DNA of 34,929 nt, from positions 1 through 34,929 of the IMG/VR virus record IMGVR_UViG_3300038379_000955; one strand, 5' to 3'. Positions 1 through 34,925 of the stretch are shown piece by piece. The position numbers and the translations under genes are program-made. Position 1 is the first letter of the stretch. Each line of letters opens with the position of its first letter. The notes under the pieces were generated by a model. The model searched no databases, had not been told where the DNA came from, and saw only the letters and a list, made by a program, of their open reading frames with translations. This DNA is from a virus. Lineage: Duplodnaviria; Caudoviricetes.

Positions 1-1091
1 CCCTAATTTTGGCGGGAACGGCCCCCGCCGGCCTGCGCGTGGCGGGGGAACTGATCCTGGAAGGGATCGAGGCCCCGATAGCTTTCCCGCCTGACTTCCA
101 GGCGGAAGTCATCGAGGTGACGGGCTGCCCGAACTTTGTCGGCTTCCCGCCCGACTTGCGGGCGCAGCACGTGACGGTGCGCTTTTGCCCGAACTTTGTC
201 GGCTTCCCGCCCGGCTTCCAGGCGCACATCATGGCCGTGAATGGCTGCGCGGCCTTTGTCGGCTTCGCGCCGGGCGGCCAGGCGGACGAAGTGTGGGTGG
301 AAAATTGCCCGCGGTTTGCGGGCTTCCCGCCTGACTTCCAGGCGGAAGATTATTGGGTGGGGGGCTGCCCCTTGTTCGCGGGCTTCCCGCCGGGCTGCCG
401 GGCGCACACCGTGTGGGTGGAAAATTGCCCGCTCTTTGCGGCTTTCCCGCCTGACTTCCAGGCGGATCATTATTGGATGGAAAATTGCCCGCTGTTCGCG
501 GCTTTCCCGCCCGGCTTGCGGGCGCAGCGCGTGACGGTGCGATTTTGCCCGCTGTTCGCGGGCTTCCCGCCTGACTTCCAGGCGGGCGCCATTCAAATAA
601 CAGCCTGCCCGAACTTTGCGGGCTTCCCGCCGGACGGCCAGGCGGACGAAGTGCGGGTGACGGGCTGCCCGAACTTTAATTTCCGCAGCCTGCCGCGCGG
701 CGGCGAGTTCTTCTGGAATGAGGTGCGGGTTGAGGACGCCGTGCTGAGCGGCCTGGCCCAGCCCGCCACCCTCACCGCCCAGGCGATTTTGCACGAGCGC
801 AACGTGGAAATCCGCCGCGTGATGCTGGAGCGCATGGGCTACGCCCGCTTTATCCGCGAATCCCAGGCGGCCACGCTGGATCAGGATAGCGACGCGGGCG
901 GGGTGCGGCGGCTGCTGAAGATCGCTTTCCCCAATGATGAGGATTTGGTGGTGGTCACCTACCACTGCCCCAGCACCGGGCGGCAGTATGTGACCCGCGT
1001 CCCACCGACCACCCGCACCTGTCATCAGGCGCTGGCCTGGATCGCGGGCTTTGACGACCCCCATCATTATAAGTTGGTCGCGGAGAGTTAA
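1..1091 (+). CDS. Variable LRR-like repeat protein with DUF6745-like C-terminus, copy A (10 repeats; 5' 25 nt missing from window)
   Basis: Position 1 corresponds to 32206/33535 of the paralogs, so the true start (MIDA.QAKALIL) is outside the window; 20-aa FxAxxVxVxxCPxFxxFPP repeats; C-terminal ERNVEIRRVMLERMG...CPSTGRQY..RVPP...ALAW motif. Confidence 0.85.
   Translation, partial: LILAGTAPAGLRVAGELILEGIEAPIAFPPDFQAEVIEVTGCPNFVGFPPDLRAQHVTVRFCPNFVGFPPGFQAHIMAVNGCAAFVGFAPGGQADEVWVENCPRFAGFPPDFQAEDYWVGGCPLFAGFPPGCRAHTVWVENCPLFAAFPPDFQADHYWMENCPLFAAFPPGLRAQRVTVRFCPLFAGFPPDFQAGAIQITACPNFAGFPPDGQADEVRVTGCPNFNFRSLPRGGEFFWNEVRVEDAVLSGLAQPATLTAQAILHERNVEIRRVMLERMGYARFIRESQAATLDQDSDAGGVRRLLKIAFPNDEDLVVVTYHCPSTGRQYVTRVPPTTRTCHQALAWIAGFDDPHHYKLVAES
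96..695 (+). repeat. Coding tandem array, 10 x 60 bp
   Basis: Exact 60-nt periodicity visible line to line (tgcccg...ttcccgcc...ggcg). Confidence 0.95.
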
Positions 1092-1094
1092 GAT

Positions 1095-2015
1095 ATGCGG
1101 GAGAAGCCCCCGCTGAGTTTGGCGGAGGCGGCCCAGAGGGCCGGTCTCCGCCCCCAAAAACAGCGGGAACATGTGCGCTGCCCCAATCAACGTCATCCCC
1201 AAACAGGGCAGACGCCGCCCTGTAGCATGGACTATGCCAAAGGCCTGTGGCATTGTTTTGGGTGCGGGGCGGGGGGGGATGCCTTTGATTTTTTGGGCTA
1301 CGCTTTGTTCCTTGAGTATGATCGACACACGCATTTTGGCCGGCTACTGGATATGCTGGCTGGATTGCAGGTGCGCCCCCTGGCAGCGCCCGAATTGCAG
1401 GCGCTGCCCAAACAACCCGCGTTTACGCTGGAGGCCCGGCGGTTGGAGGCCTGGGAGCAGCGGTTGTTCGCCCGGCCTGATTTGCTGGAGTGGCTGGCCG
1501 CACGCGGGATTGACGCCGCTGCCGCCCGGCACTGGCGGCTGGGCGCAACCGACATGGGCCAGATTGCCATCCCACATTTTTATCGGGGGGTGGTGGTCGC
1601 CGTGAAGTTGCGACGCCACCCTGAAAGCACCGCCGGCCCGAAATATGTGTCGGTGAAGGGCTCCAGTTACAGCGTGCCGTTTAATGCGGATATGCTGCAA
1701 CTGGCGCAGCCGCAAGTGGCCATCTTGGAGACGGAACTGGACGCTATCGCCTGTCAAACGCTGACGGGCATCCCCAGCGTGTCTTTGCCTGCGGGCCAGT
1801 TTAAGGCGGAATTGGCCGCTCGTTTTCTGCTATGCAAAAAAATAATAGCGATTCTCGACAATGACGCGGCGGGGATCACCAACGGCAGCAAAATCAAAAG
1901 CCTGCTGCGGCGCGCGACTTTTCGGCTGCCTCCCAGCGGAAAAGATTTGGGGGACTGGATCAGAGAGCATCCCGGCCAACCGTTGGATTGGATTATAAAA
2001 GGGGGCCATACATGA
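1095..2015 (+). CDS. DNA primase (CHC2 zinc finger + TOPRIM)
   Basis: CP..H...WHCFGCGAGGD zinc finger; ILETELDAI and DNDAAG TOPRIM motifs; KDLGDW. Confidence 0.85.
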   Translation: MREKPPLSLAEAAQRAGLRPQKQREHVRCPNQRHPQTGQTPPCSMDYAKGLWHCFGCGAGGDAFDFLGYALFLEYDRHTHFGRLLDMLAGLQVRPLAAPELQALPKQPAFTLEARRLEAWEQRLFARPDLLEWLAARGIDAAAARHWRLGATDMGQIAIPHFYRGVVVAVKLRRHPESTAGPKYVSVKGSSYSVPFNADMLQLAQPQVAILETELDAIACQTLTGIPSVSLPAGQFKAELAARFLLCKKIIAILDNDAAGITNGSKIKSLLRRATFRLPPSGKDLGDWIREHPGQPLDWIIKGGHT

Positions 2016-3400
2016 ATATCGCGGAGGCGCTGGCCATGAGCGCCAACTTAATTATGAATATCGTCACCGGCAACCTGCCGGTGACTGATCTCATCGGCTA
2101 CTTCAACAATAGCAGCGAATGTTGGCGTTATTTCCCGGATGCCGATCAGTCGCTCGTGAAGTGGCTGATCGAAAATCAGGGGCTGGGGGATATGATCAAA
2201 ATGGCGGCGGCAGTGGGCGATGAGGGCATGCAGCGGCTGGAAACGATCAACGCGTCGGTGCTAGCCGTTACCAGCGAGCCGCATATCCTGATCGATCACG
2301 CGGCGCGGCTGGAAGCGGACTGGACACGGCAGCAGGGCTTGGCCACGTTACGCCGTTTTGCGCTGCGGCTGAACGATCCTCAAGAGGACGTGCAGGCGGG
2401 GAAAATACTGGCTGAGTGCAGTCAGAGCTTAATGCAGGTGGCGCAGGGCCTACCGCGCGATGTCCTGGAGCCCGCTGATCTGCTGCACGCGGCCATGCAG
2501 ACTTTAGATCAGCGTATCTTTGATCATTCGATGGCCGTGTCGCTGCCCGTCAAGCTGCGTCCGGGCGAATTATGTGTGGTTGGAGGCTTGGCCGGCGGCG
2601 GGAAAACGGCATTGGCCTCGCAGTTGGCGTTTGAGATTGCCCAAAAAGGCCAACGCGTTTTTTTTGTGGAGACGGAGATGAACGTGGGGAATATGCTGCT
2701 GCGGGAAGCTTATCGGCAAAATCGTTTGCCGAATGGCACTTTTGACGCGTACCGCGCAGCGCTGGGCGGCTCAGAGACTTTGGCGCAAAAACGCGCCGCC
2801 ATGCAGCACGATGGGCGTTATCAGGCGCTGGCCCGAACCTTAGAACGCCTGAGCCAACTCCCCATCGTCTATCGCTGCAACAAAATTGGCGAAACGGCGG
2901 ATCAGATTCGCACGGCAGCCCGGCGCGCTGAGCAGGATGGGGGGCCACTGTCGCTGATCGTGATCGATCACATCAAGCACATGGGTACTCGCGAAAAAGC
3001 CGAGGAAGCAAACCGCGTCAAGCAAGCCTATCAGGAAGTTCTGAAGTTGAAAGAGGCTTTCCCCAGCGCCTGTATTATCGTGCTGCAACATTTGAATACG
3101 AATATCTTTCGTCGCGTGGGCGCGGCGCTCGCCCCTGGACAAGGGGATCTGGAGTACGGGGGGGCGGGGGCGTTTGATGTGGGCTATATCATTATGCGCC
3201 CCATCCAGCACGCTGCCCAGCTGAATATCGACTTGTCGAGCCTCAAACAAAAGGCTGAGGAATATGAGGAATTGCGCCGTAAAGGCTTTCTGTTTACGGT
3301 GAAGGATCGCAACGGCCCCGGCGAAGGTGCCGTTCCATTGCGTTTTTTTGGCGAATATTATCATTGGGAAGTAAAGGACTGGAAACATGGCGATCATTAA
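2012..3400 (+). CDS. DnaB-like replicative helicase
   Basis: Walker A GLAGGGKT, ETEM, LIVIDHI Walker B, QHLN, KDRNG; ATG at 2012 overlaps primase stop (ATGA). Confidence 0.85.
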   Translation: MNIAEALAMSANLIMNIVTGNLPVTDLIGYFNNSSECWRYFPDADQSLVKWLIENQGLGDMIKMAAAVGDEGMQRLETINASVLAVTSEPHILIDHAARLEADWTRQQGLATLRRFALRLNDPQEDVQAGKILAECSQSLMQVAQGLPRDVLEPADLLHAAMQTLDQRIFDHSMAVSLPVKLRPGELCVVGGLAGGGKTALASQLAFEIAQKGQRVFFVETEMNVGNMLLREAYRQNRLPNGTFDAYRAALGGSETLAQKRAAMQHDGRYQALARTLERLSQLPIVYRCNKIGETADQIRTAARRAEQDGGPLSLIVIDHIKHMGTREKAEEANRVKQAYQEVLKLKEAFPSACIIVLQHLNTNIFRRVGAALAPGQGDLEYGGAGAFDVGYIIMRPIQHAAQLNIDLSSLKQKAEEYEELRRKGFLFTVKDRNGPGEGAVPLRFFGEYYHWEVKDWKHGDH

Positions 3401-3843: not shown

Positions 3844-3876
3844 CTTGAAGTTGTCAACTCAGTTGACAACTTCAAG
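3844..3876. promoter_or_regulatory. Perfect palindrome, 16-bp arms (putative operator)
   Basis: CTTGAAGTTGTCAACT-C-AGTTGACAACTTCAAG, 6 bp upstream of a -35 box. Confidence 0.7.
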
Positions 3877-3882
3877 ACCGCT

Positions 3883-3911
3883 TTGACACGGCGGCTTTTT
3901 TGATTTATACT
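3883..3911 (+). promoter_or_regulatory. Sigma70-type promoter
   Basis: TTGACA(3883)-17 bp-TATACT(3906). Confidence 0.75.
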
Positions 3912-3995
3912 GATGATAGCAACCTTGCGAGGCTTGCCAATTCAGCCTTTTTTTGAATTGGATTTAACGTTCCTGTTTTCCTGAATGATTTTAGA

Positions 3996-10449: not shown

Positions 10450-10487
10450 GACGCGCCGTTATTGAGGAAGCGGCGCGTCTTTTTTTT
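10450..10487 (+). terminator. Rho-independent terminator
   Basis: GACGCGCCG...CGGCGCGTC stem followed by T8. Confidence 0.8.
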
Positions 10488-10497
10488 GAGGCCAACC

Positions 10498-11661
10498 ATG
10501 AAACTGCATTTTTTTAGCAATGCTCCGCACGCGCCAACGGGCTACGGGGTGATGATGCGCCAGGTACTGCCGCGATTAAAGGCGCGCGGCCATGAGATTA
10601 CGTTAACTGCCTACTATGGCTTGCACGGTGCCCCGCTGACGCTGAACGGCATCACGATTTATCCTGGTAGCCAAGACGCCTTTGGCCAAGATGTGTTTGC
10701 TGCCGATGCCATATTTGTGGGCGCGGATGCTGTGATCAGCAATATGGACGTGTGGGTTATCGCGCCCGAACAAAGCGCGCAGGTACCTTGGTATCCCTGG
10801 CTGCCTATCGACCATGATCCAGTGCCGCCCGCCGTGCTAGAACACCTGCAACCGGCCAAGTTGCCTTTGTCTTATAGCCGTTGGGGGGTGGAAAAATTGC
10901 GCGAAGCGGGGCGAGAAGCGCTCTATGTGCCGGCGGGGGTGGATGTTGAAATTTTTAAGCCCCACGCCCAAAAAGACGCCCGCGAAAAATTGGGGTTGCC
11001 GGCTGAGGCCTTTATCGTGGGCATGAACGGGGCTAATAAGGGCAGTCCAGGGCGGAAATATTTTGATGGGCAAATTCGCGCTTTTGCGGAATTCGAAAAA
11101 CGACATCCTGAGGCTTTTTTATATCTGCACACCGATCCCTACAATGCCATTGGGGAGGATATTCCGCGTCTGCTTGAGCTGGCCGGCGTCAAGAACTACG
11201 CCTTTACGGCAACCTATCAGTATGTACGTGGCCTGATAACGCCCGAGACACTGGCGATGTTGTATAGTGCGTTTGATGTGCTGTTGCACGCCAGCATGAG
11301 TGAGGGTTTTGGGATCGTGATTATCGAGGCCCAGGCTTGTGGTTGCCCTGCGATTGTGACAGATTTTTCGGCCATGCCTGAACTGCTTTATGCCGGCTGG
11401 AAAGTAGGATATGTCGATAAATTTTGGACCGCGCAAGAAAGTTATCAGGTCATCCCCGCTGTCGCTGAAATTCGGGAGGCACTGGAGAAGGCCTATGCTG
11501 AACGCGGCAACCAGGCCTTGCGCGAACAGGCGCGAGTGGCGATGGTGCAGCATTTTGAGGCCGACCAGATGATCGATACTCATTGGAAAGCAGCCCTAAC
11601 ACGCATTGCGGCGGAGATTGCCCATGAAAAACTATCGGAACTAAGCCATGCTGCCACTTAA
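10498..11661 (+). CDS. Glycosyltransferase, GT-B fold (GT4-like)
   Basis: PTGYG N-terminus, GVD...FKP, EGFGIVIIEAQACG.P.I EX7E motif; ATG 10498 with GAGG. Confidence 0.9.
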   Translation: MKLHFFSNAPHAPTGYGVMMRQVLPRLKARGHEITLTAYYGLHGAPLTLNGITIYPGSQDAFGQDVFAADAIFVGADAVISNMDVWVIAPEQSAQVPWYPWLPIDHDPVPPAVLEHLQPAKLPLSYSRWGVEKLREAGREALYVPAGVDVEIFKPHAQKDAREKLGLPAEAFIVGMNGANKGSPGRKYFDGQIRAFAEFEKRHPEAFLYLHTDPYNAIGEDIPRLLELAGVKNYAFTATYQYVRGLITPETLAMLYSAFDVLLHASMSEGFGIVIIEAQACGCPAIVTDFSAMPELLYAGWKVGYVDKFWTAQESYQVIPAVAEIREALEKAYAERGNQALREQARVAMVQHFEADQMIDTHWKAALTRIAAEIAHEKLSELSHAAT

Positions 11662-12754
11662 GTATCCAGTCGGTAGGCCGCAATTGGGCATTGAGGAAGT
11701 GAGCGCCGTGAACGCGGTGGTTCGTTCGGGCCAACTGACGCAGGGCGAAAAAGTTGCCGCGTTCGAAACAGCCTTCGCGTCGTATATTGGCACACGTTAT
11801 GCGGTGGCGGTGAGCAGCGGCACTGCGGCCTTACACCTGGCATTGGTGGCGGCGGGGATTGGGGCCGGCGATGAGGTGATTGTGCCGAATCTGACCTTTA
11901 TCGCTACGGCAAACGCAGTAACCTACACCGGGGCAACGGTGATCCTTGCGGATGTAGACGACAGTTTGTGTCTGGATGCCAATGGCCTGGAAGGGTTGAT
12001 CACGCCCCGGACGAAAGCCATTATCCCAGTGCATTTATATGGCAATTTGGCCGATATGCCCGCGCTTAATCAATTGGCCCAAACGCACCATTTACGGGTG
12101 CTGGAGGATGCAGCCGAGGCCCTCGGCGCCGACTTGGGCGGCGTGCGGGTTGGTGGTTGGGGCCAGGCGGGATGTTTTTCGTTTTACGGCAACAAAACGA
12201 TCACCACCGGTGAAGGCGGGATGATCACTACCGATGACAGTTCGTTAGCGGCGCGGCTACGGCTGCTACGTGGCCAGGGAAAAACGCCAGGCCGGGATTA
12301 TTGGCATGAAATACGCGGCTATAATTATCGCTTGACTGAAATTCAGGCCGCATTAGGGCTAGCGCAGCTGAGTAAATTGCACGATGTGCTGGAAGCGCGG
12401 GCGCGTGTCTTTCGATTATACGAGCACGTTTTGAGCGATTTTGAATTTCCCAAGCGGACGCCGGGGCGGCACGGCTGCTGGGCTTTTGTGATGTTGCTGC
12501 CGGCGGCTGTGGATCGGGATGGGGTGCGGCGGTATTTGCTGGAAAAAGGCATTGAAACGCGGCCCGTTTTCCCGCTGCTTTCCGAAATGATTTATCCCAG
12601 TACGCGGCCCTACCCGGTGGCCAAAGCTGCGGCGCGCCGGGGGATCGTGCTGCCGACCTATCCCGATTTGAAAGATCGCGAAGTGATTGAAATTGCGGAA
12701 ACACTAAAAGAGGCGATTCATGCAAGTAGTCATGCTATCGTTATGGCGGAATGA
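11648..12754 (+). CDS. DegT/DnrJ/EryC1/StrS PLP sugar aminotransferase (perosamine synthase-like)
   Basis: SSGTAALHLAL, GDEVIVP..TFIAT, EDAAEALG, FSFYGNKTITTGEGG, GYNYRL. Confidence 0.95.
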   Translation: MLPLKYPVGRPQLGIEEVSAVNAVVRSGQLTQGEKVAAFETAFASYIGTRYAVAVSSGTAALHLALVAAGIGAGDEVIVPNLTFIATANAVTYTGATVILADVDDSLCLDANGLEGLITPRTKAIIPVHLYGNLADMPALNQLAQTHHLRVLEDAAEALGADLGGVRVGGWGQAGCFSFYGNKTITTGEGGMITTDDSSLAARLRLLRGQGKTPGRDYWHEIRGYNYRLTEIQAALGLAQLSKLHDVLEARARVFRLYEHVLSDFEFPKRTPGRHGCWAFVMLLPAAVDRDGVRRYLLEKGIETRPVFPLLSEMIYPSTRPYPVAKAAARRGIVLPTYPDLKDREVIEIAETLKEAIHASSHAIVMAE

Positions 12755-13427
12755 CGCCCAACGCGCCATTAAAAGCCGTCTACAGCACTTGTTGGCCAAG
12801 GGGGCGTCGGCCTATATTTGGGTGACGGGGGATAATGTAGATGATACCGAACACATTCTTAGCACTTCGGCCCACTGCCAAAAAGAAATTATTGTCCTGC
12901 GCAAGGATACACACATCCACAGTTCAGTTCCCGATGATCGTTTGCGCGGCCTCTCCCAAAGCGCCCAAGCCGGGCTGGATTATTTTGTGGATCACTATGC
13001 CCAGGCGGATTATCTGCTCATTCATGAATCGGATTTAATCAGCCCGCCGAACTTAATTGAGCGTATGATAGCATTATCACAGTCGAAAAACGGCGCAGCG
13101 GTAGCCGGCTGGGTGACGCTCCAGCTGGGCAGCGAAAAATTATTTTATGATACGTGGGCTTATCGCAAAGACGGGGTGAAATTCACCAATCATGCGCCTT
13201 TTCATGCCAGCTATGACGCCGAAACGCCGTTTGAAGTTGATAGTGTCGGCAGTTGTGTGTTGTTCCCCGCCCATCCCTTGCGGGATGGATGGCGTTTAAC
13301 GCAAGGGGGCATCGTGGAAATCTGCCAAAAAATGCAAGCGGCGGGGGTGCATATTTGGGTTGATCCGACGCTGGAAATTATTCAGCCGGTGGCGTTATGG
13401 AGTGCGGCCAGCCATGCCAATTTTTGA
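12720..13427 (+). CDS. Putative glycosyltransferase, GT-A-like
   Basis: DYLLIHESD (DxD-like), FYDTWAYR, VDSVGSC; embedded in sugar cassette. Confidence 0.6.
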   Translation: MQVVMLSLWRNDAQRAIKSRLQHLLAKGASAYIWVTGDNVDDTEHILSTSAHCQKEIIVLRKDTHIHSSVPDDRLRGLSQSAQAGLDYFVDHYAQADYLLIHESDLISPPNLIERMIALSQSKNGAAVAGWVTLQLGSEKLFYDTWAYRKDGVKFTNHAPFHASYDAETPFEVDSVGSCVLFPAHPLRDGWRLTQGGIVEICQKMQAAGVHIWVDPTLEIIQPVALWSAASHANF

Positions 13428-13881
13428 GCCTGTATTGATCCTCAAGCCCGAAGTGGTGAAAATTGATCCCCGCGCTCGCGTGGACAGTTTTGTAAAAATC
13501 GAAGGTGGCGAAGGGGTGGACATAGGGGCTTATGTCCACATTAGTTCTTTCTGCCATGTGAATATTGGCGGCGGGAGGGTGATGCTGGCGGCGGGCGCGG
13601 CCTTAGCCAGCGGCGCTAAAATATTAGGCGGATCCAACCAGCCCGCTGGTATCAGTATGAGCGCCGCCGCCCCGGCCGAGCAACAAGTAATCAGCCGTGC
13701 CATCACCCGCTTAGGCGAAAATGCTTTTTTGGGAGTGAATGCCGTGATCATGCCAGGCGTGCAGGTCGGAGCGGGGGCGGTTATTGGCGCGGGCGCGGTG
13801 GTCACCCAAAACGTGCCACCGGGCGAAATCTGGGCGGGGGTGCCAGCCCGAAAAATTGGCATGCGGAGCATAAAACAATGA
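13414..13881 (+). CDS. Hexapeptide-repeat (left-handed beta helix) acyltransferase
   Basis: LGENAFLGVNAVIMPGVQVGAGAVIGAGAVVT..VP...WAGVPAR. Confidence 0.9.
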   Translation: MPIFEPVLILKPEVVKIDPRARVDSFVKIEGGEGVDIGAYVHISSFCHVNIGGGRVMLAAGAALASGAKILGGSNQPAGISMSAAAPAEQQVISRAITRLGENAFLGVNAVIMPGVQVGAGAVIGAGAVVTQNVPPGEIWAGVPARKIGMRSIKQ

Positions 13882-22852: not shown

Positions 22853-22865
22853 AAACCATCCGCTA

Positions 22866-22888
22866 AGTTGTCAACTAAGTTAACAACT
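22866..22888. promoter_or_regulatory. Second copy of AGTTGTCAACT-N-AGTTGACAACT palindrome
   Basis: AGTTGTCAACTAAGTTAACAACT between convergent genes; one arm mismatch versus 3849-3871. Confidence 0.65.
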
Positions 22889-26291: not shown

Positions 26292-26320
26292 TTGACATTA
26301 TTCCCGCATAGGAGTATAAT
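26292..26320 (+). promoter_or_regulatory. Rightward consensus sigma70 promoter
   Basis: TTGACA-17 bp-TATAAT. Confidence 0.85.
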
Positions 26321-26365
26321 GGAATTATAAGATGGGAGTTTAAATAGATAACGAGGAGATCTTAA

Positions 26366-30251: not shown

Positions 30252-30322
30252 AAAAGTTTTCAACACATCTGACAACTTTTGTAAATATCTGAAAATACTT
30301 GACAACTACTGGCGTGATGATT

Positions 30323-30331
30323 TGATATAAT
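30323..30331 (+). promoter_or_regulatory. Extended -10 promoter upstream of initiator leader
   Basis: TGnTATAAT; TTGACA at 30299 is 21 bp away (non-optimal). Confidence 0.55.
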
Positions 30332-30336
30332 AAAGA

Positions 30337-30441
30337 TGGCAAGTAGAAAGACGAGCCCTTTCCGGGATGCTGCGCAGAAGAAATCTCCTATCTACTTTCT
30401 GCTTGCCAACGCAGCATCCCCCAAAGGGTTTTATTTTATTT
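30337..30441 (+). ncRNA. Putative two-state leader/sRNA (attenuator-like)
   Basis: Interleaved helices 30337-30350/30395-30408 and 30356-30374/30410-30428, followed by U-rich tract. Confidence 0.55.
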
Positions 30442-30459
30442 CTAAGTTCGAGGATAGAA

Positions 30460-31335
30460 ATGGAAAACAGTCGCGTTATTAGTCGTCAAGAAGGCTTCAG
30501 TATTTTGCCCCATCGTTTTTTTGAGTATGGGCTGAAAAACGATGCGTTTGTAGTTTACTGGGCGTTACAAAGTTTCGTTGGGCGAGATCAGAACGAGTGT
30601 TGGCCCAGCCATGCGCGTTTAAGACGCATGGCGGGCAACATTTCGAAGAACACCTTGCTCAAAGCTTTGCAGGCATTGGAGGAGCAAGGCTTCATCGAAA
30701 TCCAAACACGTATTCGTCCGGATGGGGGGCATACATCCAATCTCTATATCATTTTAGCATATCCTGCGCTGGATCAACACGCTAAAATCCAAGCTCAGCC
30801 GCCCGCCGACCCTGCCGAATCTGCCCCCCCCCCTGCTCAAAATTTAAACGGGGGGGGTTCAAAATTTGAACAGGGGGGGGTTCAAAATTTGAACCCGAAC
30901 AATACCCATATCGAATCATACCCAGCAACGGCGACTCCACCGGTGGAAGTGATTCCAACGATCGATCCTATCGCGCCCAAAGAAAAAAATGCAAAAAACG
31001 GCGCGCCAACGCCTAAGCCACCCCAACCTTTGACGCCTTATCAGGCATTTGTGAAAGCTTATGCGGAGCTTTTAGGGCTGGATTTGGCCCTCAATCGTTC
31101 CAAAATCACGGCCAACGCGGCGCGGCTGTGGAAAGCGGGCTACACGGCGGAAAACTTGGCCACTTTTCGGCAGTGGTGGTTTGAGGTCCGCCACGGCCTG
31201 GAGGGCGCGCCGCCTCCCTCCATTGGCGTGATCAATGCTGAAATCAGACGAGCGCTGGAAATGATGCAGCGGCGCGCGGCCCTGCCGCCCGTGGCCCCGG
31301 CCTGGCAAAAAATATTGGATGGTTTTGAAGATTGA
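30460..31335 (+). CDS. Replication initiator (N-terminal wHTH, lambda O-like organisation)
   Basis: CWPS...L......SKNT....L..LE..GFI...SN.Y; internal iterons; GAGGA RBS before ATG 30460. Confidence 0.8.
   Translation: MENSRVISRQEGFSILPHRFFEYGLKNDAFVVYWALQSFVGRDQNECWPSHARLRRMAGNISKNTLLKALQALEEQGFIEIQTRIRPDGGHTSNLYIILAYPALDQHAKIQAQPPADPAESAPPPAQNLNGGGSKFEQGGVQNLNPNNTHIESYPATATPPVEVIPTIDPIAPKEKNAKNGAPTPKPPQPLTPYQAFVKAYAELLGLDLALNRSKITANAARLWKAGYTAENLATFRQWWFEVRHGLEGAPPPSIGVINAEIRRALEMMQRRAALPPVAPAWQKILDGFED
30824..30897. repeat. Iterons / putative replication origin
   Basis: Three (G)TTCAAAATTTRAAC-like quasi-palindromic units separated by G8 runs, preceded by C10, inside initiator gene. Confidence 0.7.
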
Positions 31336-31355: not shown

Positions 31356-31413
31356 CCCCCTAAAAATTAGGGGGTATCGCCTACTTGACAAAGTATATCT
31401 CGCGTGCTATACT
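31356..31413 (+). promoter_or_regulatory. Cassette promoter P1 with upstream inverted repeat
   Basis: CCCCCTAA-AAA-TTAGGGGG, then TTGACA(31385)-17 bp-TATACT(31408). Confidence 0.85.
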
Positions 31414-31438
31414 TTATATATAGATAGGAGATAAAGAG

Positions 31439-31735
31439 ATGTTGAATAGGTTAATGCAGATATTTTTTAAGAAAGAACCCCCGCCCCCCCCCCCAAGCCC
31501 CGATCCCGCGCCCTTTTGGGCGGAGATCGAGTTCGCGGAACTCATCGCGTACGCCCAACAGGGCGGGGAAATTTACTTTCCCGTGCTGCTGCGGGGTCGC
31601 GAGATTCGCGACTGCTGGCAGCGGTCAGCAGTGCAGTATCAGGTCCGCTGGGTCGGCGAGGACCGACCTTCCAACGACTACGTTTATCCAGAGGCTTTGG
31701 TCACGGTGCCGCGCAGCGTGACTGTGACCGGGTAG
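31439..31735 (+). CDS. Small protein with poly-Pro and chromo/SH3-like C-terminus
   Basis: AGGAG RBS; YQVRWVGEDRPSNDYVYPEAL. Confidence 0.6.
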   Translation: MLNRLMQIFFKKEPPPPPPSPDPAPFWAEIEFAELIAYAQQGGEIYFPVLLRGREIRDCWQRSAVQYQVRWVGEDRPSNDYVYPEALVTVPRSVTVTG

Positions 31736-31810
31736 CCCCCAGCCCGCTTCGGCGGGATTTTGGGGTAGAGGTTCTAGTCTAGGCCCTACGGGGCAGAAAG
31801 AAAATAAAAT

Positions 31811-32110
31811 ATGTGGCGTCATGGAGATGTTTTGCTGGCTAAGGTGGAAGCCCTGCCCGCTGGGGCCAAACCGCACGCTGGGGCCACCCTGGCTTACGGG
31901 GAAGTGACCGGGCATAGCCATCGTTTTGCCGATCCCGAAAGTGTGGAACTTTTTATGGGGTTGGAGGGGTTGCTGTTTGTCCGCGTGATTGGCCCAAGCG
32001 CCACGCTGATTCACGAAGAACACCAACCCATCACCATCCCGCAAGGGGTGTATCGGGTCTGGCAGCAACGGGAATACAGTCCGCACGCCATCCGGGCGAT
32101 GCTGGACTAG
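31811..32110 (+). CDS. His-motif small beta protein, partner of DUF6745-like genes
   Basis: RHGDV...LA.GE.TGHSH...HEEH..I.IP.G.Y.V..QREY; family recalled as adjacent to DUF6745 genes. Confidence 0.75.
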   Translation: MWRHGDVLLAKVEALPAGAKPHAGATLAYGEVTGHSHRFADPESVELFMGLEGLLFVRVIGPSATLIHEEHQPITIPQGVYRVWQQREYSPHAIRAMLD

Positions 32111-32139: not shown

Positions 32140-32180
32140 GATGGGAGAGGAGCCTGGAGAAGAATAGATAGGAGATAAAG

Positions 32181-33416
32181 ATGATTGATGCAGATCAGGC
32201 TAAAGCCCTAATTTTGGCGGGAACGGCCCCCGCCGGCCTGCGCGTGGCGGGGGAACTGATCCTGGAAGGGATCGACGCCCCGATAGCTTTCCCGCCTGAC
32301 TTCCAGGCGGAAGTCATCGAGGTGAATGGCTGCCCGAACTTTGTCGGCTTCCCGCCTGACTTCCAGGCGGAAGTCATCGAGGTGACGGGCTGCCCGAACT
32401 TTGTCGGCTTCCCGCCTGACTTCCAGGCGGATCATTATTGGGTGGGGGGCTGCCCCTTGTTCGCGGGCTTCCCGCCCGACTTGCGGGCGCAGCACGTGAT
32501 GGTGCGCTTTTGCCCGCTCTTTGCGGCTTTCCCGCCTGACTTCCAGGCGGATCATTATTGGGTGGAGCATTGCCCGAACTTCGCGGGCTTCCCGCCCGGC
32601 TTGCGGGCGCAGCGCGTGCGAGTGGAAAATTGCCCCTTGTTCGCGGCTTTCCCGCCGGGCTGCCGGGCGCACAGCGTGTGGGTGGAAAATTGCCCGAACT
32701 TTGCGGCTTTCCCGCCCGACTTCCAGGCGGATCATTATTGGGTGGGGCGCTGCCCCTTGTTCGCGGGCTTCCCGCCCGACTTGCGGGCGCAGCACGTGAT
32801 GGTGCGCTTTTGCCCGCTCTTCGCTGGCTTCGCGCCGGGCGGCCAGGCGGATCATTATTGGATGGAAAATTGCCCGAACTTTGTCGGCTTCCCGCCCGGC
32901 TTGCGGGCGCAGCGCGTGACGGTGCGTTTTTGCGCGGCCTTTGTCGGCTTCGCGCCGGGCGGCCAGGCGGACGAAGTGCGCGTGACGCGCTGCCCGAACT
33001 TCAACTTCCACCACGTGCCGTCCGGCGGCGAGTTCTTCTGGAATGATGTGCGGGTTGAGGCCCGCGTGCTGGATTTGCTGGCTCAGCCCGCCACCCTCAC
33101 CGCCCAGGCGATTTTGCACGAGCGCAACGTGGAAATCCGCCGCGTGATGCTGGAGCGCATGGGCTACGCGCGCTTTATCCGCGAATCCCAGGCCGCCACG
33201 CTGGATCAGGATAGCGACGCGGGCGGGGTGCGGCGGCTGCTGAAGATCGCTTTCCCCAATGATGAGGATTTGGTGGTGGTCACCTACCACTGCCCCAGCA
33301 CCGGGCGGCAGTATGTGACCCGCGTCCCACCGACCACCCGCACCTGTCATCAGGCGCTGGCCTGGATCGCGGGCTTTGACGACCCCCATCATTATAAGTT
33401 GGTCGCGGAGAGTTAA
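32181..33416 (+). CDS. Variable LRR-like repeat / DUF6745-like protein, copy B (12 repeats)
   Basis: AGGAG RBS; 411 aa; same caps as copies A and C. Confidence 0.9.
   Translation: MIDADQAKALILAGTAPAGLRVAGELILEGIDAPIAFPPDFQAEVIEVNGCPNFVGFPPDFQAEVIEVTGCPNFVGFPPDFQADHYWVGGCPLFAGFPPDLRAQHVMVRFCPLFAAFPPDFQADHYWVEHCPNFAGFPPGLRAQRVRVENCPLFAAFPPGCRAHSVWVENCPNFAAFPPDFQADHYWVGRCPLFAGFPPDLRAQHVMVRFCPLFAGFAPGGQADHYWMENCPNFVGFPPGLRAQRVTVRFCAAFVGFAPGGQADEVRVTRCPNFNFHHVPSGGEFFWNDVRVEARVLDLLAQPATLTAQAILHERNVEIRRVMLERMGYARFIRESQAATLDQDSDAGGVRRLLKIAFPNDEDLVVVTYHCPSTGRQYVTRVPPTTRTCHQALAWIAGFDDPHHYKLVAES
32301..33020 (+). repeat. Coding tandem array, 12 x 60 bp
   Basis: 60-nt periodicity. Confidence 0.95.
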
Positions 33417-33478
33417 GATACCCCCTAAAAATTAGGGGGTATCGCCTGCTTGACAAAGTATATCTCGCGTGCTATACT
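33417..33478 (+). promoter_or_regulatory. Duplicated cassette promoter P2
   Basis: GATACCCCCTAA-AAA-TTAGGGGGTATC, TTGACA(33450)-17 bp-TATACT(33473); one substitution versus P1. Confidence 0.85.
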
Positions 33479-33509
33479 TTATATATAGAAGAATAGATAG
33501 GAGATAAAG

Positions 33510-34925
33510 ATGATTGATGCAAATCAGGCTAAAGCCCTAATTTTGGCGGGAACGGCCCCCGCCGGCCTGCGCGTGGCGGGGGAACTGATCCTGGAAGGGA
33601 TCGAGGCCCCGATAGCTTTCCCGCCTGACTTCCAGGCGGAAGTCATCGAGGTGAATGGCTGCCCGAACTTTGTCGGCTTCCCGCCCGGCTTGCGGGCGCA
33701 GCACGTGACGGTGCGCTTTTGCCCGAACTTTGTCGGCTTCCCGCCTGACTTCCAGGCGGATCATTATTGGGTGGGGGGCTGCCCCTTGTTTGCTGGCTTC
33801 CCGCCGGGCTGCCGGGCGCACAGCGTGTGGATGGAAAATTGCCCGCTGTTCGCGGCTTTCCCGCCGGGCTGCCGGGCGCAGCGCGTGCGAGTGGAAAATT
33901 GCCCGCTGTTCGCGGCTTTCCCGCCCGACTTCCAGGCGGAAGATTATTGGGTGGGGGGCTGCCCCTTGTTCGCGGGCTTCCCGCCTGACTTGCGGGCGGA
34001 AGATTATTGGGTGACGGGCTGCGCGGCCTTTGTCGGCTTCCCGCCCGACTTGCGGGCGCAGCACGTGACGGTGCGCTTTTGCCCGCGGTTCGCGGGCTTC
34101 CCGCCCGGCTTCCAGGCGCACATCATGGCCGTGAATGGCTGCGCGGCCTTTGTCGGCTTTGCGCCGGGCTGCCGGGCGCACACCGTGTGGGTGGAAAATT
34201 GCCCGCTCTTTGCGGCTTTCCCGCCTGACTTCCAGGCGGATCATTATTGGATGGAAAATTGCCCGCTGTTCGCGGCTTTCCCGCCCGGCTTGCGGGCGCA
34301 GCGCGTGCGAGTGGAAAATTGCCCGAACTTTGCGGCTTTCCCGCCCGACTTCCAGGCGGATCATTATTGGATGGAAAATTGCCCGAACTTTGTCGGCTTC
34401 CCGCCCGGCTTGCGGGCGCACAGCGTGCGGGTGGAAAATTGCCCGCTGTTCGCTGGCTTCGCGCCGGGCGGCCAGGCGGACGAAGTGCGCGTGACGCGCT
34501 GCCCGAACTTCAACTTCCACCACGTGCCGCCCGGCGGCGAGTTCTTCTGGAATGATGTGCGGGTTGAGGCCCGCGTGCTGGATTTGCTGGCTCAGCCCGC
34601 CACCCTCACCGCCCAGGCGATTTTGCACGAGCGCAACGTGGAAATCCGCCGCGTGATGCTGGAGCGCATGGGCTACGCGCGCTTTATCCGCGAATCCCAG
34701 GCCGCCACGCTGGATCAGGATAGCGACGCGGGCGGGGTGCGGCGGCTGCTGAAGATCGCTTTCCCCAATGATGAGGATTTGGTGGTGGTCACCTACCACT
34801 GCCCCAGCACCGGGCGGCAGTATGTGACCCGCGTCCCACCGACCACCCGCACCTGTCATCAGGCGCTGGCCTGGATCGCGGGCTTTGACGACCCCCATCA
34901 TTATAAGTTGGTCGCGGAGAGTTAA
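33510..34925 (+). CDS. Variable LRR-like repeat / DUF6745-like protein, copy C (15 repeats)
   Basis: AGGAG RBS; 471 aa. Confidence 0.9.
   Translation: MIDANQAKALILAGTAPAGLRVAGELILEGIEAPIAFPPDFQAEVIEVNGCPNFVGFPPGLRAQHVTVRFCPNFVGFPPDFQADHYWVGGCPLFAGFPPGCRAHSVWMENCPLFAAFPPGCRAQRVRVENCPLFAAFPPDFQAEDYWVGGCPLFAGFPPDLRAEDYWVTGCAAFVGFPPDLRAQHVTVRFCPRFAGFPPGFQAHIMAVNGCAAFVGFAPGCRAHTVWVENCPLFAAFPPDFQADHYWMENCPLFAAFPPGLRAQRVRVENCPNFAAFPPDFQADHYWMENCPNFVGFPPGLRAHSVRVENCPLFAGFAPGGQADEVRVTRCPNFNFHHVPPGGEFFWNDVRVEARVLDLLAQPATLTAQAILHERNVEIRRVMLERMGYARFIRESQAATLDQDSDAGGVRRLLKIAFPNDEDLVVVTYHCPSTGRQYVTRVPPTTRTCHQALAWIAGFDDPHHYKLVAES
33630..34529 (+). repeat. Coding tandem array, 15 x 60 bp
   Basis: 60-nt periodicity. 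Confidence 0.95.

Follow-up and report, generated by a model that had tools for sequence, protein, structure and literature searches.

The C4 RNA of P1/P7 acts on icd by blocking the ribosome-binding site (RBS). In P4, the CI RNA comes from the primary transcript, pairs with the seqA and seqC sites, and stops transcription of the replication genes (PMC4825925). The C4 antisense RNA has its own Rfam family (RF01695), which is listed for Proteobacteria and phages (PMC2864571). Small RNAs that derive from attenuators and act in trans have also been described, among them rnTrpL (PMC7968998) and SreA/SreB (in PMC4825925), which respond to a metabolite or a leader peptide. The rep leaders of pIP501 and pT181 (PMC4981023) are two-state leaders with a terminator just before the initiator gene, and depend on a counter-transcribed RNA from a convergent promoter. 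There is, in addition, the zipper-type attenuator cATT of pLS20 (PMC13401043), a mobile-element leader with a long imperfect stem and alternative folds, in which the flanks extend the long stem to give the antiterminator.

The locus considered here belongs to a viral record from a freshwater metagenome. The window, by which we mean the whole stretch of DNA analysed, is the entire record of 34,929 bases (CheckV 73%, class linear). Among its genes are a head and tail module of the tailed-phage kind and those for a ParM-like protein, RecT, an O-like initiator, a primase and a helicase. No tyrosine integrase, resolvase or HTH_3 repressor was found within the 34,929-base window, and we therefore infer a plasmid-like prophage state. 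A contig of 30,348 bases from the source run is identical to window 1066-31413, leader included, with zero differences. Rep-profile matches do not establish a host, because those found among 401 genomes from the phylum of a Chloroflexota MAG (23/401) cover only the N-terminal HTH part of the profile. Within the head module, two glycosyltransferases, a DegT aminotransferase and a hexapeptide acyltransferase are encoded at 10462-13881, possibly for glycosylation of the virion.

The replication initiator gene, rep (30460-31335; profile matches to HTH_36 and O-like PHROGs), and the leader in front of it lie on the plus strand. An extended -10 promoter, TG-a-TATAAT, is found at 30323-30331 (promoter score 9.5); the closest TTGACA, at 30299-30304, is 21 nt off and too distant. 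Given the spacing from the -10 box, the transcript is predicted to start at G30338, and the leader thus covers about 30338-30441. Its first 13 nt form a 5' tail, GGCAAGTAGAAAG (30338-30350), which pairs with the loop segment 30395-30408 in what we call fold A (13-14 bp with 30337-30350; 0/300 loop shuffles were as good). Fold B is a long terminator-like stem with its 5' arm at 30353-30374 and its 3' arm and U-rich tail at 30410-30441, the predicted 3' end of a terminated RNA of ~100 nt. It consists of a 21-bp imperfect stem, a 35-nt loop region and the U-rich tail (z = -6.83 for 30352-30445, 0/200 shuffles as good), and the last part of the tail-complementary segment forms its 8-nt bulge. Fold A is the predicted minimum free-energy structure for transcripts whose 3' end lies at 30405-30415 (about -24 kcal/mol); an enforced fold-A energy of -2.6 is a constraint artefact and was left unused. 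The more stable fold B is predicted to form only once 30410-30431 is transcribed, and to dominate from 30420 on (-28 to -36 kcal/mol). Because the two helices cross, folds A and B would be expected to compete. The leader is likely an attenuator that switches the initiator gene between stop and read-through.

It is useful to set this leader beside the systems above. The likeness to the P4 CI RNA (PMC4825925 and PMC3632133) is that of a small RNA from the sense leader of a replication operon which is complementary to its own upstream site; the present element also lies on the sense strand between promoter and rep, with the 5' tail as its seqA-like target. In both, premature termination is proposed to gate the replication genes, and a plasmid-like state is likely here. 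The two differ in that the present leader has no Rfam match (neither in the window nor in 13 relative loci at gathering score) and folds into a single long hairpin with a bulge, which is the terminator itself. They also differ in that no seqC-like site was found downstream in the same leader, the rep start region giving a raw duplex of only -11.2; the second target lies on transcripts with separate promoters. With C4, the shared features are a loop antisense to a ribosome site and a proposed polarity on downstream genes, but C4 is multi-stem (supplement alignment of PMC2864571) and gates an antirepressor operon, and its covariance model gave no match in the window at E<=5, in a 201-nt region at E<=10, or in the 13 relative loci at gathering score. 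As with rnTrpL and SreA/SreB, a terminated leader is proposed to act in trans on another mRNA, the difference being that those respond to a metabolite or leader peptide, and that the target match here is a perfect 12-mer in the terminator loop. The predicted alternative folds with a terminator just before rep recall pIP501 and pT181, whereas a convergent promoter with a counter-transcribed RNA is supported neither here nor in relatives. The cATT attenuator differs in the role of the long stem, which here is the terminator; the upstream tail pairs with the loop and not with the flank. By analogy, then, the leader would work like P4 CI/c4 and the attenuator-derived trans small RNAs, while by model, fold and downstream site it falls outside C4, and it also falls outside the counter-transcribed group.

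Close relatives of the window were sought in several ways. Scans of viral contigs with Rep, the LRR-like protein, RecT and the leader pattern returned none, and word-based protein searches with Rep, the ParM-like protein and the helicase returned only the window's own proteins. Eight terminase-matched loci had no rep, leader or cassette in common with the window, and searches of phage records gave only distant matches to the capsid and to gene 31811. A HMMER search with the initiator found distant relatives only (best E = 8e-15, 35% identity). The relatives used below are the subset with a C-terminal WWxxDWRG motif, from which 12 viral and 48 metagenome loci were fetched and 7 records extended. 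Leaders were called where a detector saw a promoter, a large-loop hairpin and a U-tract together, tail pairing playing no part in the criteria. In 54 contigs (610,344 bases) it yielded 21 elements. At many Rep loci it picked up no leader, and several of these loci are too short for one. After merging one near-identical group of four, the loop paired with its own tail at p<=0.03 in 16/18 distinct loops including the window, or 15/17 without it, as against 3/36 flanking controls. The same detector applied to 41 other loci (226,350 bases) found 3 elements, 0/3 significant; this control leaves out the locus of G283, an unpublished genome that counts among the 401. The leader with two folds that the preliminary description had proposed ahead of the initiator gains support from the tail-to-loop pairing, which returns, in altered sequence, in 15/17 other distinct leaders.

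Sequences differ throughout this family, and the loop prefers its own tail in 16/17 cases, as expected of a specificity determinant. Four contigs carry two leaders each (G008 at 359 and 3048; L020 at 816 and 3594; L040 at 422 and 1664; L076 at 5637 and 6476), and in each of them both loops favour the tail of their own leader over that of the other. Since the pairing recurs while the sequences differ, the conserved job of the loop is to pair with the 5' tail of its own leader. In most relatives this pairing runs through two segments. The window is peculiar among 17 leaders: its tail, at 17 nt, is the shortest (31-59 nt in the others), and its free 5' loop segment, at 16 nt, is the longest (0-11 nt in the others). 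In no other leader compared does the loop have a long stretch that finds no partner within the leader itself. This stretch contains the 12-mer discussed below. A search of the open literature, with the primary P4 and P1 papers outside its range, found no description of a tail-to-loop leader family. Two smaller observations may be recorded here. In L076, an identical word of ~15 nt follows the -10 box at the start of both leaders. Near HTH genes in three bacterial genomes (L094 at 1683, L095 at 2179, L097 at 2165), another type of promoter-leader-terminator element is conserved, and it has no significant tail-loop pairing.

The comparison across leaders also bears on two other ways of reading the element. 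It could be the site of a minus-strand gene start, or the locus could make an antisense RNA of the pIP501/pT181 type. A weak minus-strand Rfam match to ctRNA_pND324 and a minus-strand TAAAAT (score 8) point in this direction, but the former, at 22.8 bits, is far under the gathering score of 45, and the latter is the complement of the U-tract. No strong or conserved opposite-strand promoter was found in 17 leaders (best <=9, vs 9.5-13.5 for the sense promoters), and a full-length counter-transcript would cover the 5' arm of the terminator. The preliminary description had seen no suitably spaced ATG, and in the sequence neither ATG, GTG nor TTG follows the minus-strand AGGAG at ribosome spacing; there is only a CTG at 7 nt, which opens 23 codons. 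We consider both forms of this explanation highly improbable. Hardly credible is a form of attenuation in which ribosomes are sensed on a leader frame that runs from AUG 30336 through the terminator for 48 codons and has its start covered by pairing with the loop. The frame exists, and the leader frames of two relatives end in an ATGA-type overlap with the next gene. The pairing, however, touches start codons in 13/17 leaders vs 10.3 expected, and anti-SD cores occur in 6/17 loops vs 4.4 expected. With 4 nt between the -10 box and the AUG, the G of this codon is the more likely start of the transcript.

We now turn to the unpartnered loop segment. An exact-match search confirmed that ATCTCCTATCTA (30383-30394) is the reverse complement of three plus-strand sites, 31421-31432, 32165-32176 and 33494-33505, each in the RBS region of a gene in the cassette downstream of rep. 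The preliminary description had called the 12-mer unpaired in both folds, and the predictions agree: to open it takes 0.3 kcal/mol in the complete leader and 1.9 kcal/mol in a nascent transcript that has reached 30410. The targets are open as well (0.2-1.2 kcal/mol). In an accessibility-aware scan of both strands, run with a heuristic seed-and-extend script and not with IntaRNA, the three RBS sites scored -17.0, -15.8 and -15.2 kcal/mol and the leader's own 5' end -16.6. The next-best site reached -11.2, and the top four exceed all but the locus's own opposite strand. The predicted net pairing between the loop and the cassette RBS is -15 to -17.6. Silencing of the cassette in trans by the terminated leader is thus predicted by the target modelling, and the cassette sites are the top predicted trans targets in this one genome.

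Two further candidates were set aside. The consensus early promoter and UTR at 26292-26365 (plus strand) do contain the bulged variant TAGAT-AACG-AGGAGAT (26345-26360) that the preliminary description listed, but as a target of the leader the UTR of gene 26366 is weak, at -3.8 to -6.9 net of opening costs. The best raw duplex with the whole loop falls at window 1073-1104, where a DUF6745 gene ends and the primase gene starts; it reaches -29.4 (22/1,500 shuffles as good) and is reduced to only -7.8 net.

The cassette itself is built on the plus strand from a repeated module. The promoter module P1 (31356-31438) has a palindrome at 31356-31374, a TTGACA-17-TATACT promoter and a predicted start at 31420, which places the first target 12-mer at +2 of the predicted transcript (net interaction -17.6). 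It is followed by a 98-aa gene with no family match (31439-31735), a hairpin at about 31737-31764, and a PHROG 27831 gene (31811-32110) that adjoins DUF6745 genes in 4/5 bacterial loci. The second 12-mer (32165-32176) precedes the DUF6745 LRR-like gene B (32181-33416), for which no own promoter was found. The module recurs as P2 (33421-33509; predicted start 33485), with the third 12-mer at +10 and 6 further possible pairs upstream, before the DUF6745 LRR-like gene C (33510-34925; profile match). P1 and P2 are the two top-scoring promoters in the genome. A third DUF6745 copy (3-1091), its start cut by the window end, ends 4 nt before the primase gene; the primase and DnaB-like helicase genes (1095-3400, plus strand) would lie downstream of the cassette if the genome is circular. 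Both window ends fall in DUF6745 gene repeats, the contigs with the promoter module and with the RBS plus gene start have roughly twice the depth (about 30 vs 15.7), and one of these double-depth contigs also fits window 1-113. There are hints here of a circular genome with a fourth target 12-mer before the gene at the window start, contig depth not being equal to copy number. The 3-1091 copy probably has a fourth promoter and 12-mer copy, for which contig depth is a hint only.

The label LRR that had been given to the cassette genes holds as a description of fold. Pfam assigns DUF6745 only, and the structural model (pLDDT 90.9) is a solenoid of 20-residue repeats whose best structural matches are LRR proteins, with weak E-values. 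No literature naming DUF6745 was found, and its relatives occur in Chloroflexota and Planctomycetota MAGs. The three paralogues (32181-33416, 33510-34925, 3-1091) are 81-87% identical and their 60-bp units differ in number and order, which suggests diversification by unit shuffling, although the array order could be partly a product of assembly. A recurring 7-bp hairpin with an A/T-rich tail and a terminator-like score is seen in the repeat arrays at 32412, 32532, 33741 and 34221. No clear terminator was seen between P2 and the primase gene, only these weak repeated hairpins inside the arrays, which could add polarity if the genes are untranslated. Directly upstream of the -35 box, both cassette promoters have a palindrome, C5-TAAAAATTA-G5 (31356-31374 and 33421-33439), which suggests a protein regulator.

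How unusual the 12-mer match is depends on the null that is chosen. The earlier estimate of 0.004 occurrences per 35 kb is arithmetically right but uses the wrong null. All three RBS targets exist, yet they are not independent: because the sites are copies of one duplicated module, with B and C as paralogues, the match counts as a single event. Allowing <=2 mismatches, the 12-mer has 5 matches vs 0.56 expected, and 0/100 shuffles reach 5. When the 15-nt loop was shuffled, a 12-nt match to one of 48 start regions arose in 321/200,000 cases, rising to 2,498/200,000 with the CTCCT anti-SD core fixed, so that the loop nulls for a start-region match span 0.16-1.25%. Shuffling the 103-nt leader whole gave 119/20,000, and shuffles scored against the whole genome gave 2,048/200,000. 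With the 35-nt loop, 5/1,000 shuffles matched any of 124 SD-bearing starts and 60/1,000 (6%) matched the whole genome. At other places, the same genome has several more 12-mers that are antisense to start regions by chance. No exact copy of the 12-mer was found in 91 fetched loci, two one-mismatch rows being the same contig, so that among these loci the word is no generic RBS sequence. By the standards of this genome the match is unusual, though not beyond what a very large scan would yield, and it was picked post hoc.

One test of the trans match is whether the relatives have its like. A distant RBS match like that of the window is absent from all 19 relatives' leaders (16 distinct loops, without the G007 element, which does not pair). 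Against distant start regions, their perfect matches run to 10 nt at most; a single one reaches p=0.02, and p>=0.22 holds for all others. Among 15 leaders with another strong promoter on the contig, promoter-proximal matches are 5-8 nt with no p below 0.08, while the window in the same test has 12 nt, which 0/400 shuffles equal at the starts of 8 other strong promoters. The relatives are distant and mostly fragments, only G001 and G002, which share one loop, being near complete, and the 12 viral Rep loci compared have no DUF6745 or 31811-like gene. As far as these sequences go, the distant RBS match is not a family trait. The trans silencing in the preliminary description therefore holds as a target prediction for this one genome, with no equivalent in relatives. 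The loss of complementarity with the stems kept, which that description named as a refutation, is seen in the relatives and speaks against generality; a lineage-specific gain may still underlie the match.

These results invite the view that the leader is a real attenuator acting in cis (or on itself in trans), and that its pyrimidine-rich, CUCCU-bearing linker mirrors a purine-rich RBS by chance, the RBS having been duplicated later. The single independent event, the 0/19 relatives, the shuffle frequencies, the post hoc choice and the other antisense 12-mers all fit. Against it, the two promoters with the highest scores have the target at +2 and +10, the promoter-proximal match is equalled by 0/400 shuffles, the 12-mer is the one loop part without a cis partner, and the pairing with copy C can be extended by 6 bp. 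We regard coincidence as possible, though on the doubtful side.

Shared ancestry without present function offers another account, in which a second tail site was lost in cis and a copy survives as the 5' UTR of the cassette module. This would suit the short tail and unpartnered loop segment of the window, given that most relatives pair through two segments, and the tail end TAGAAAGACGAG, read from the sequence, resembles the target at 8/12 positions. However, the spacers of the rep and cassette promoters are otherwise unlike, so that any duplication must be old, and the persistence of a perfect match over such a time would indicate selection. If the RNA accumulates, pairing is still to be expected on physical grounds. 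We find this account quite unlikely.

The preliminary description had also suggested that cassette mRNA could be the trigger, and of its two branches this one has the least support. The 5' end of the mRNA would bind the nascent loop and displace the tail, leading to termination, or would sponge up the terminated RNA and so free rep. The 12-mer does lie at the very 5' end of strong transcripts, and the duplex with copy C can extend 6 bp into the tail-binding segment (-21.4). The 12 bp themselves, on the other hand, are outside helix A, the extension brings no net gain (-16.0 vs -16.7), binding would be confined to the brief time before the stem closes, and the relatives have the switch while no such ligand was found for them. 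A trigger role is thus very unlikely.

The reading we favour is a P4 CI-like attenuator whose terminated RNA has gained a second target and silences the cassette; taken as a whole chain, it is a tentative proposal that falls a little short of being probable. Its first step is given by the sequence and the predicted folding, in which the tail pairs with the loop (fold A) before the terminator hairpin forms (fold B). Fold A would hinder closure of the long stem and allow read-through into rep, and termination would follow when the tail is blocked. As the terminated RNA accumulates, its loop and bulge would bind the tails of new transcripts in trans, providing copy-number feedback and immunity as P4 CI RNA does on seqA. 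In this lineage only, the partnerless loop segment would also pair over 12 bp across the SD of gene 31439 and of the LRR-like genes and block their translation. The cassette would bypass the switch unless controlled, because its own strong promoters lie between rep and primase; P2, and probably a third promoter copy, would read toward primase and helicase, and the RBS block with its polarity could bring them under the same RNA. Several points count against this chain. The loop could be occupied by the tail that the terminated RNA still carries. The palindromes at the cassette promoters suggest control by a protein. On reading the sequence, CTATCTA is a one-mismatch neighbour of the tail-pairing heptamer, so that part of the match may come from local duplication.

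A more far-reaching version is a phage-plasmid without a repressor, in which one ~100-nt RNA re-terminates its own operon and shuts the cassette promoters through a new 12-nt module. We think this unlikely in its full form, but were it true, it would mean an uncatalogued, sequence-hypervariable attenuator family whose reach has been extended to an acquired cassette. With its orthogonal tail-loop pairs, a leader family that has no Rfam entry could sort uncultured phages into immunity or incompatibility groups. Should the trans match prove real, a switch of this type can capture a newly inserted cassette by a 12-nt change, and RNA-only immunity extends beyond the P4/P1/N15 examples; if the match is chance, the value lies in the family evidence alone. 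On the sequence evidence, there is a well-supported leader family, and a trans target in a single genome that is unproven.

Some other elements near the initiator gene and the late promoter deserve mention. Inside rep, at 30826-30880, an inverted repeat of 24 nt contains repeated TTCAAAATTTGAA words and is likely an origin or iteron region. A palindromic, operator-like repeat built on TTGACAAC (15 matches vs 4.3 expected) occurs at a probable late promoter (3848-3872), at the end of the late operon (22865-22888) and twice, in degenerate form, just before the rep promoter (30254-30278 and 30297-30307), which suggests a protein regulator common to the late and rep promoters. After the probable late promoter, there are two small hairpins at 3906-3975, and GCTTGCCAA (3932-3940) is complementary to the 5' tail of the rep leader (raw -15.3).
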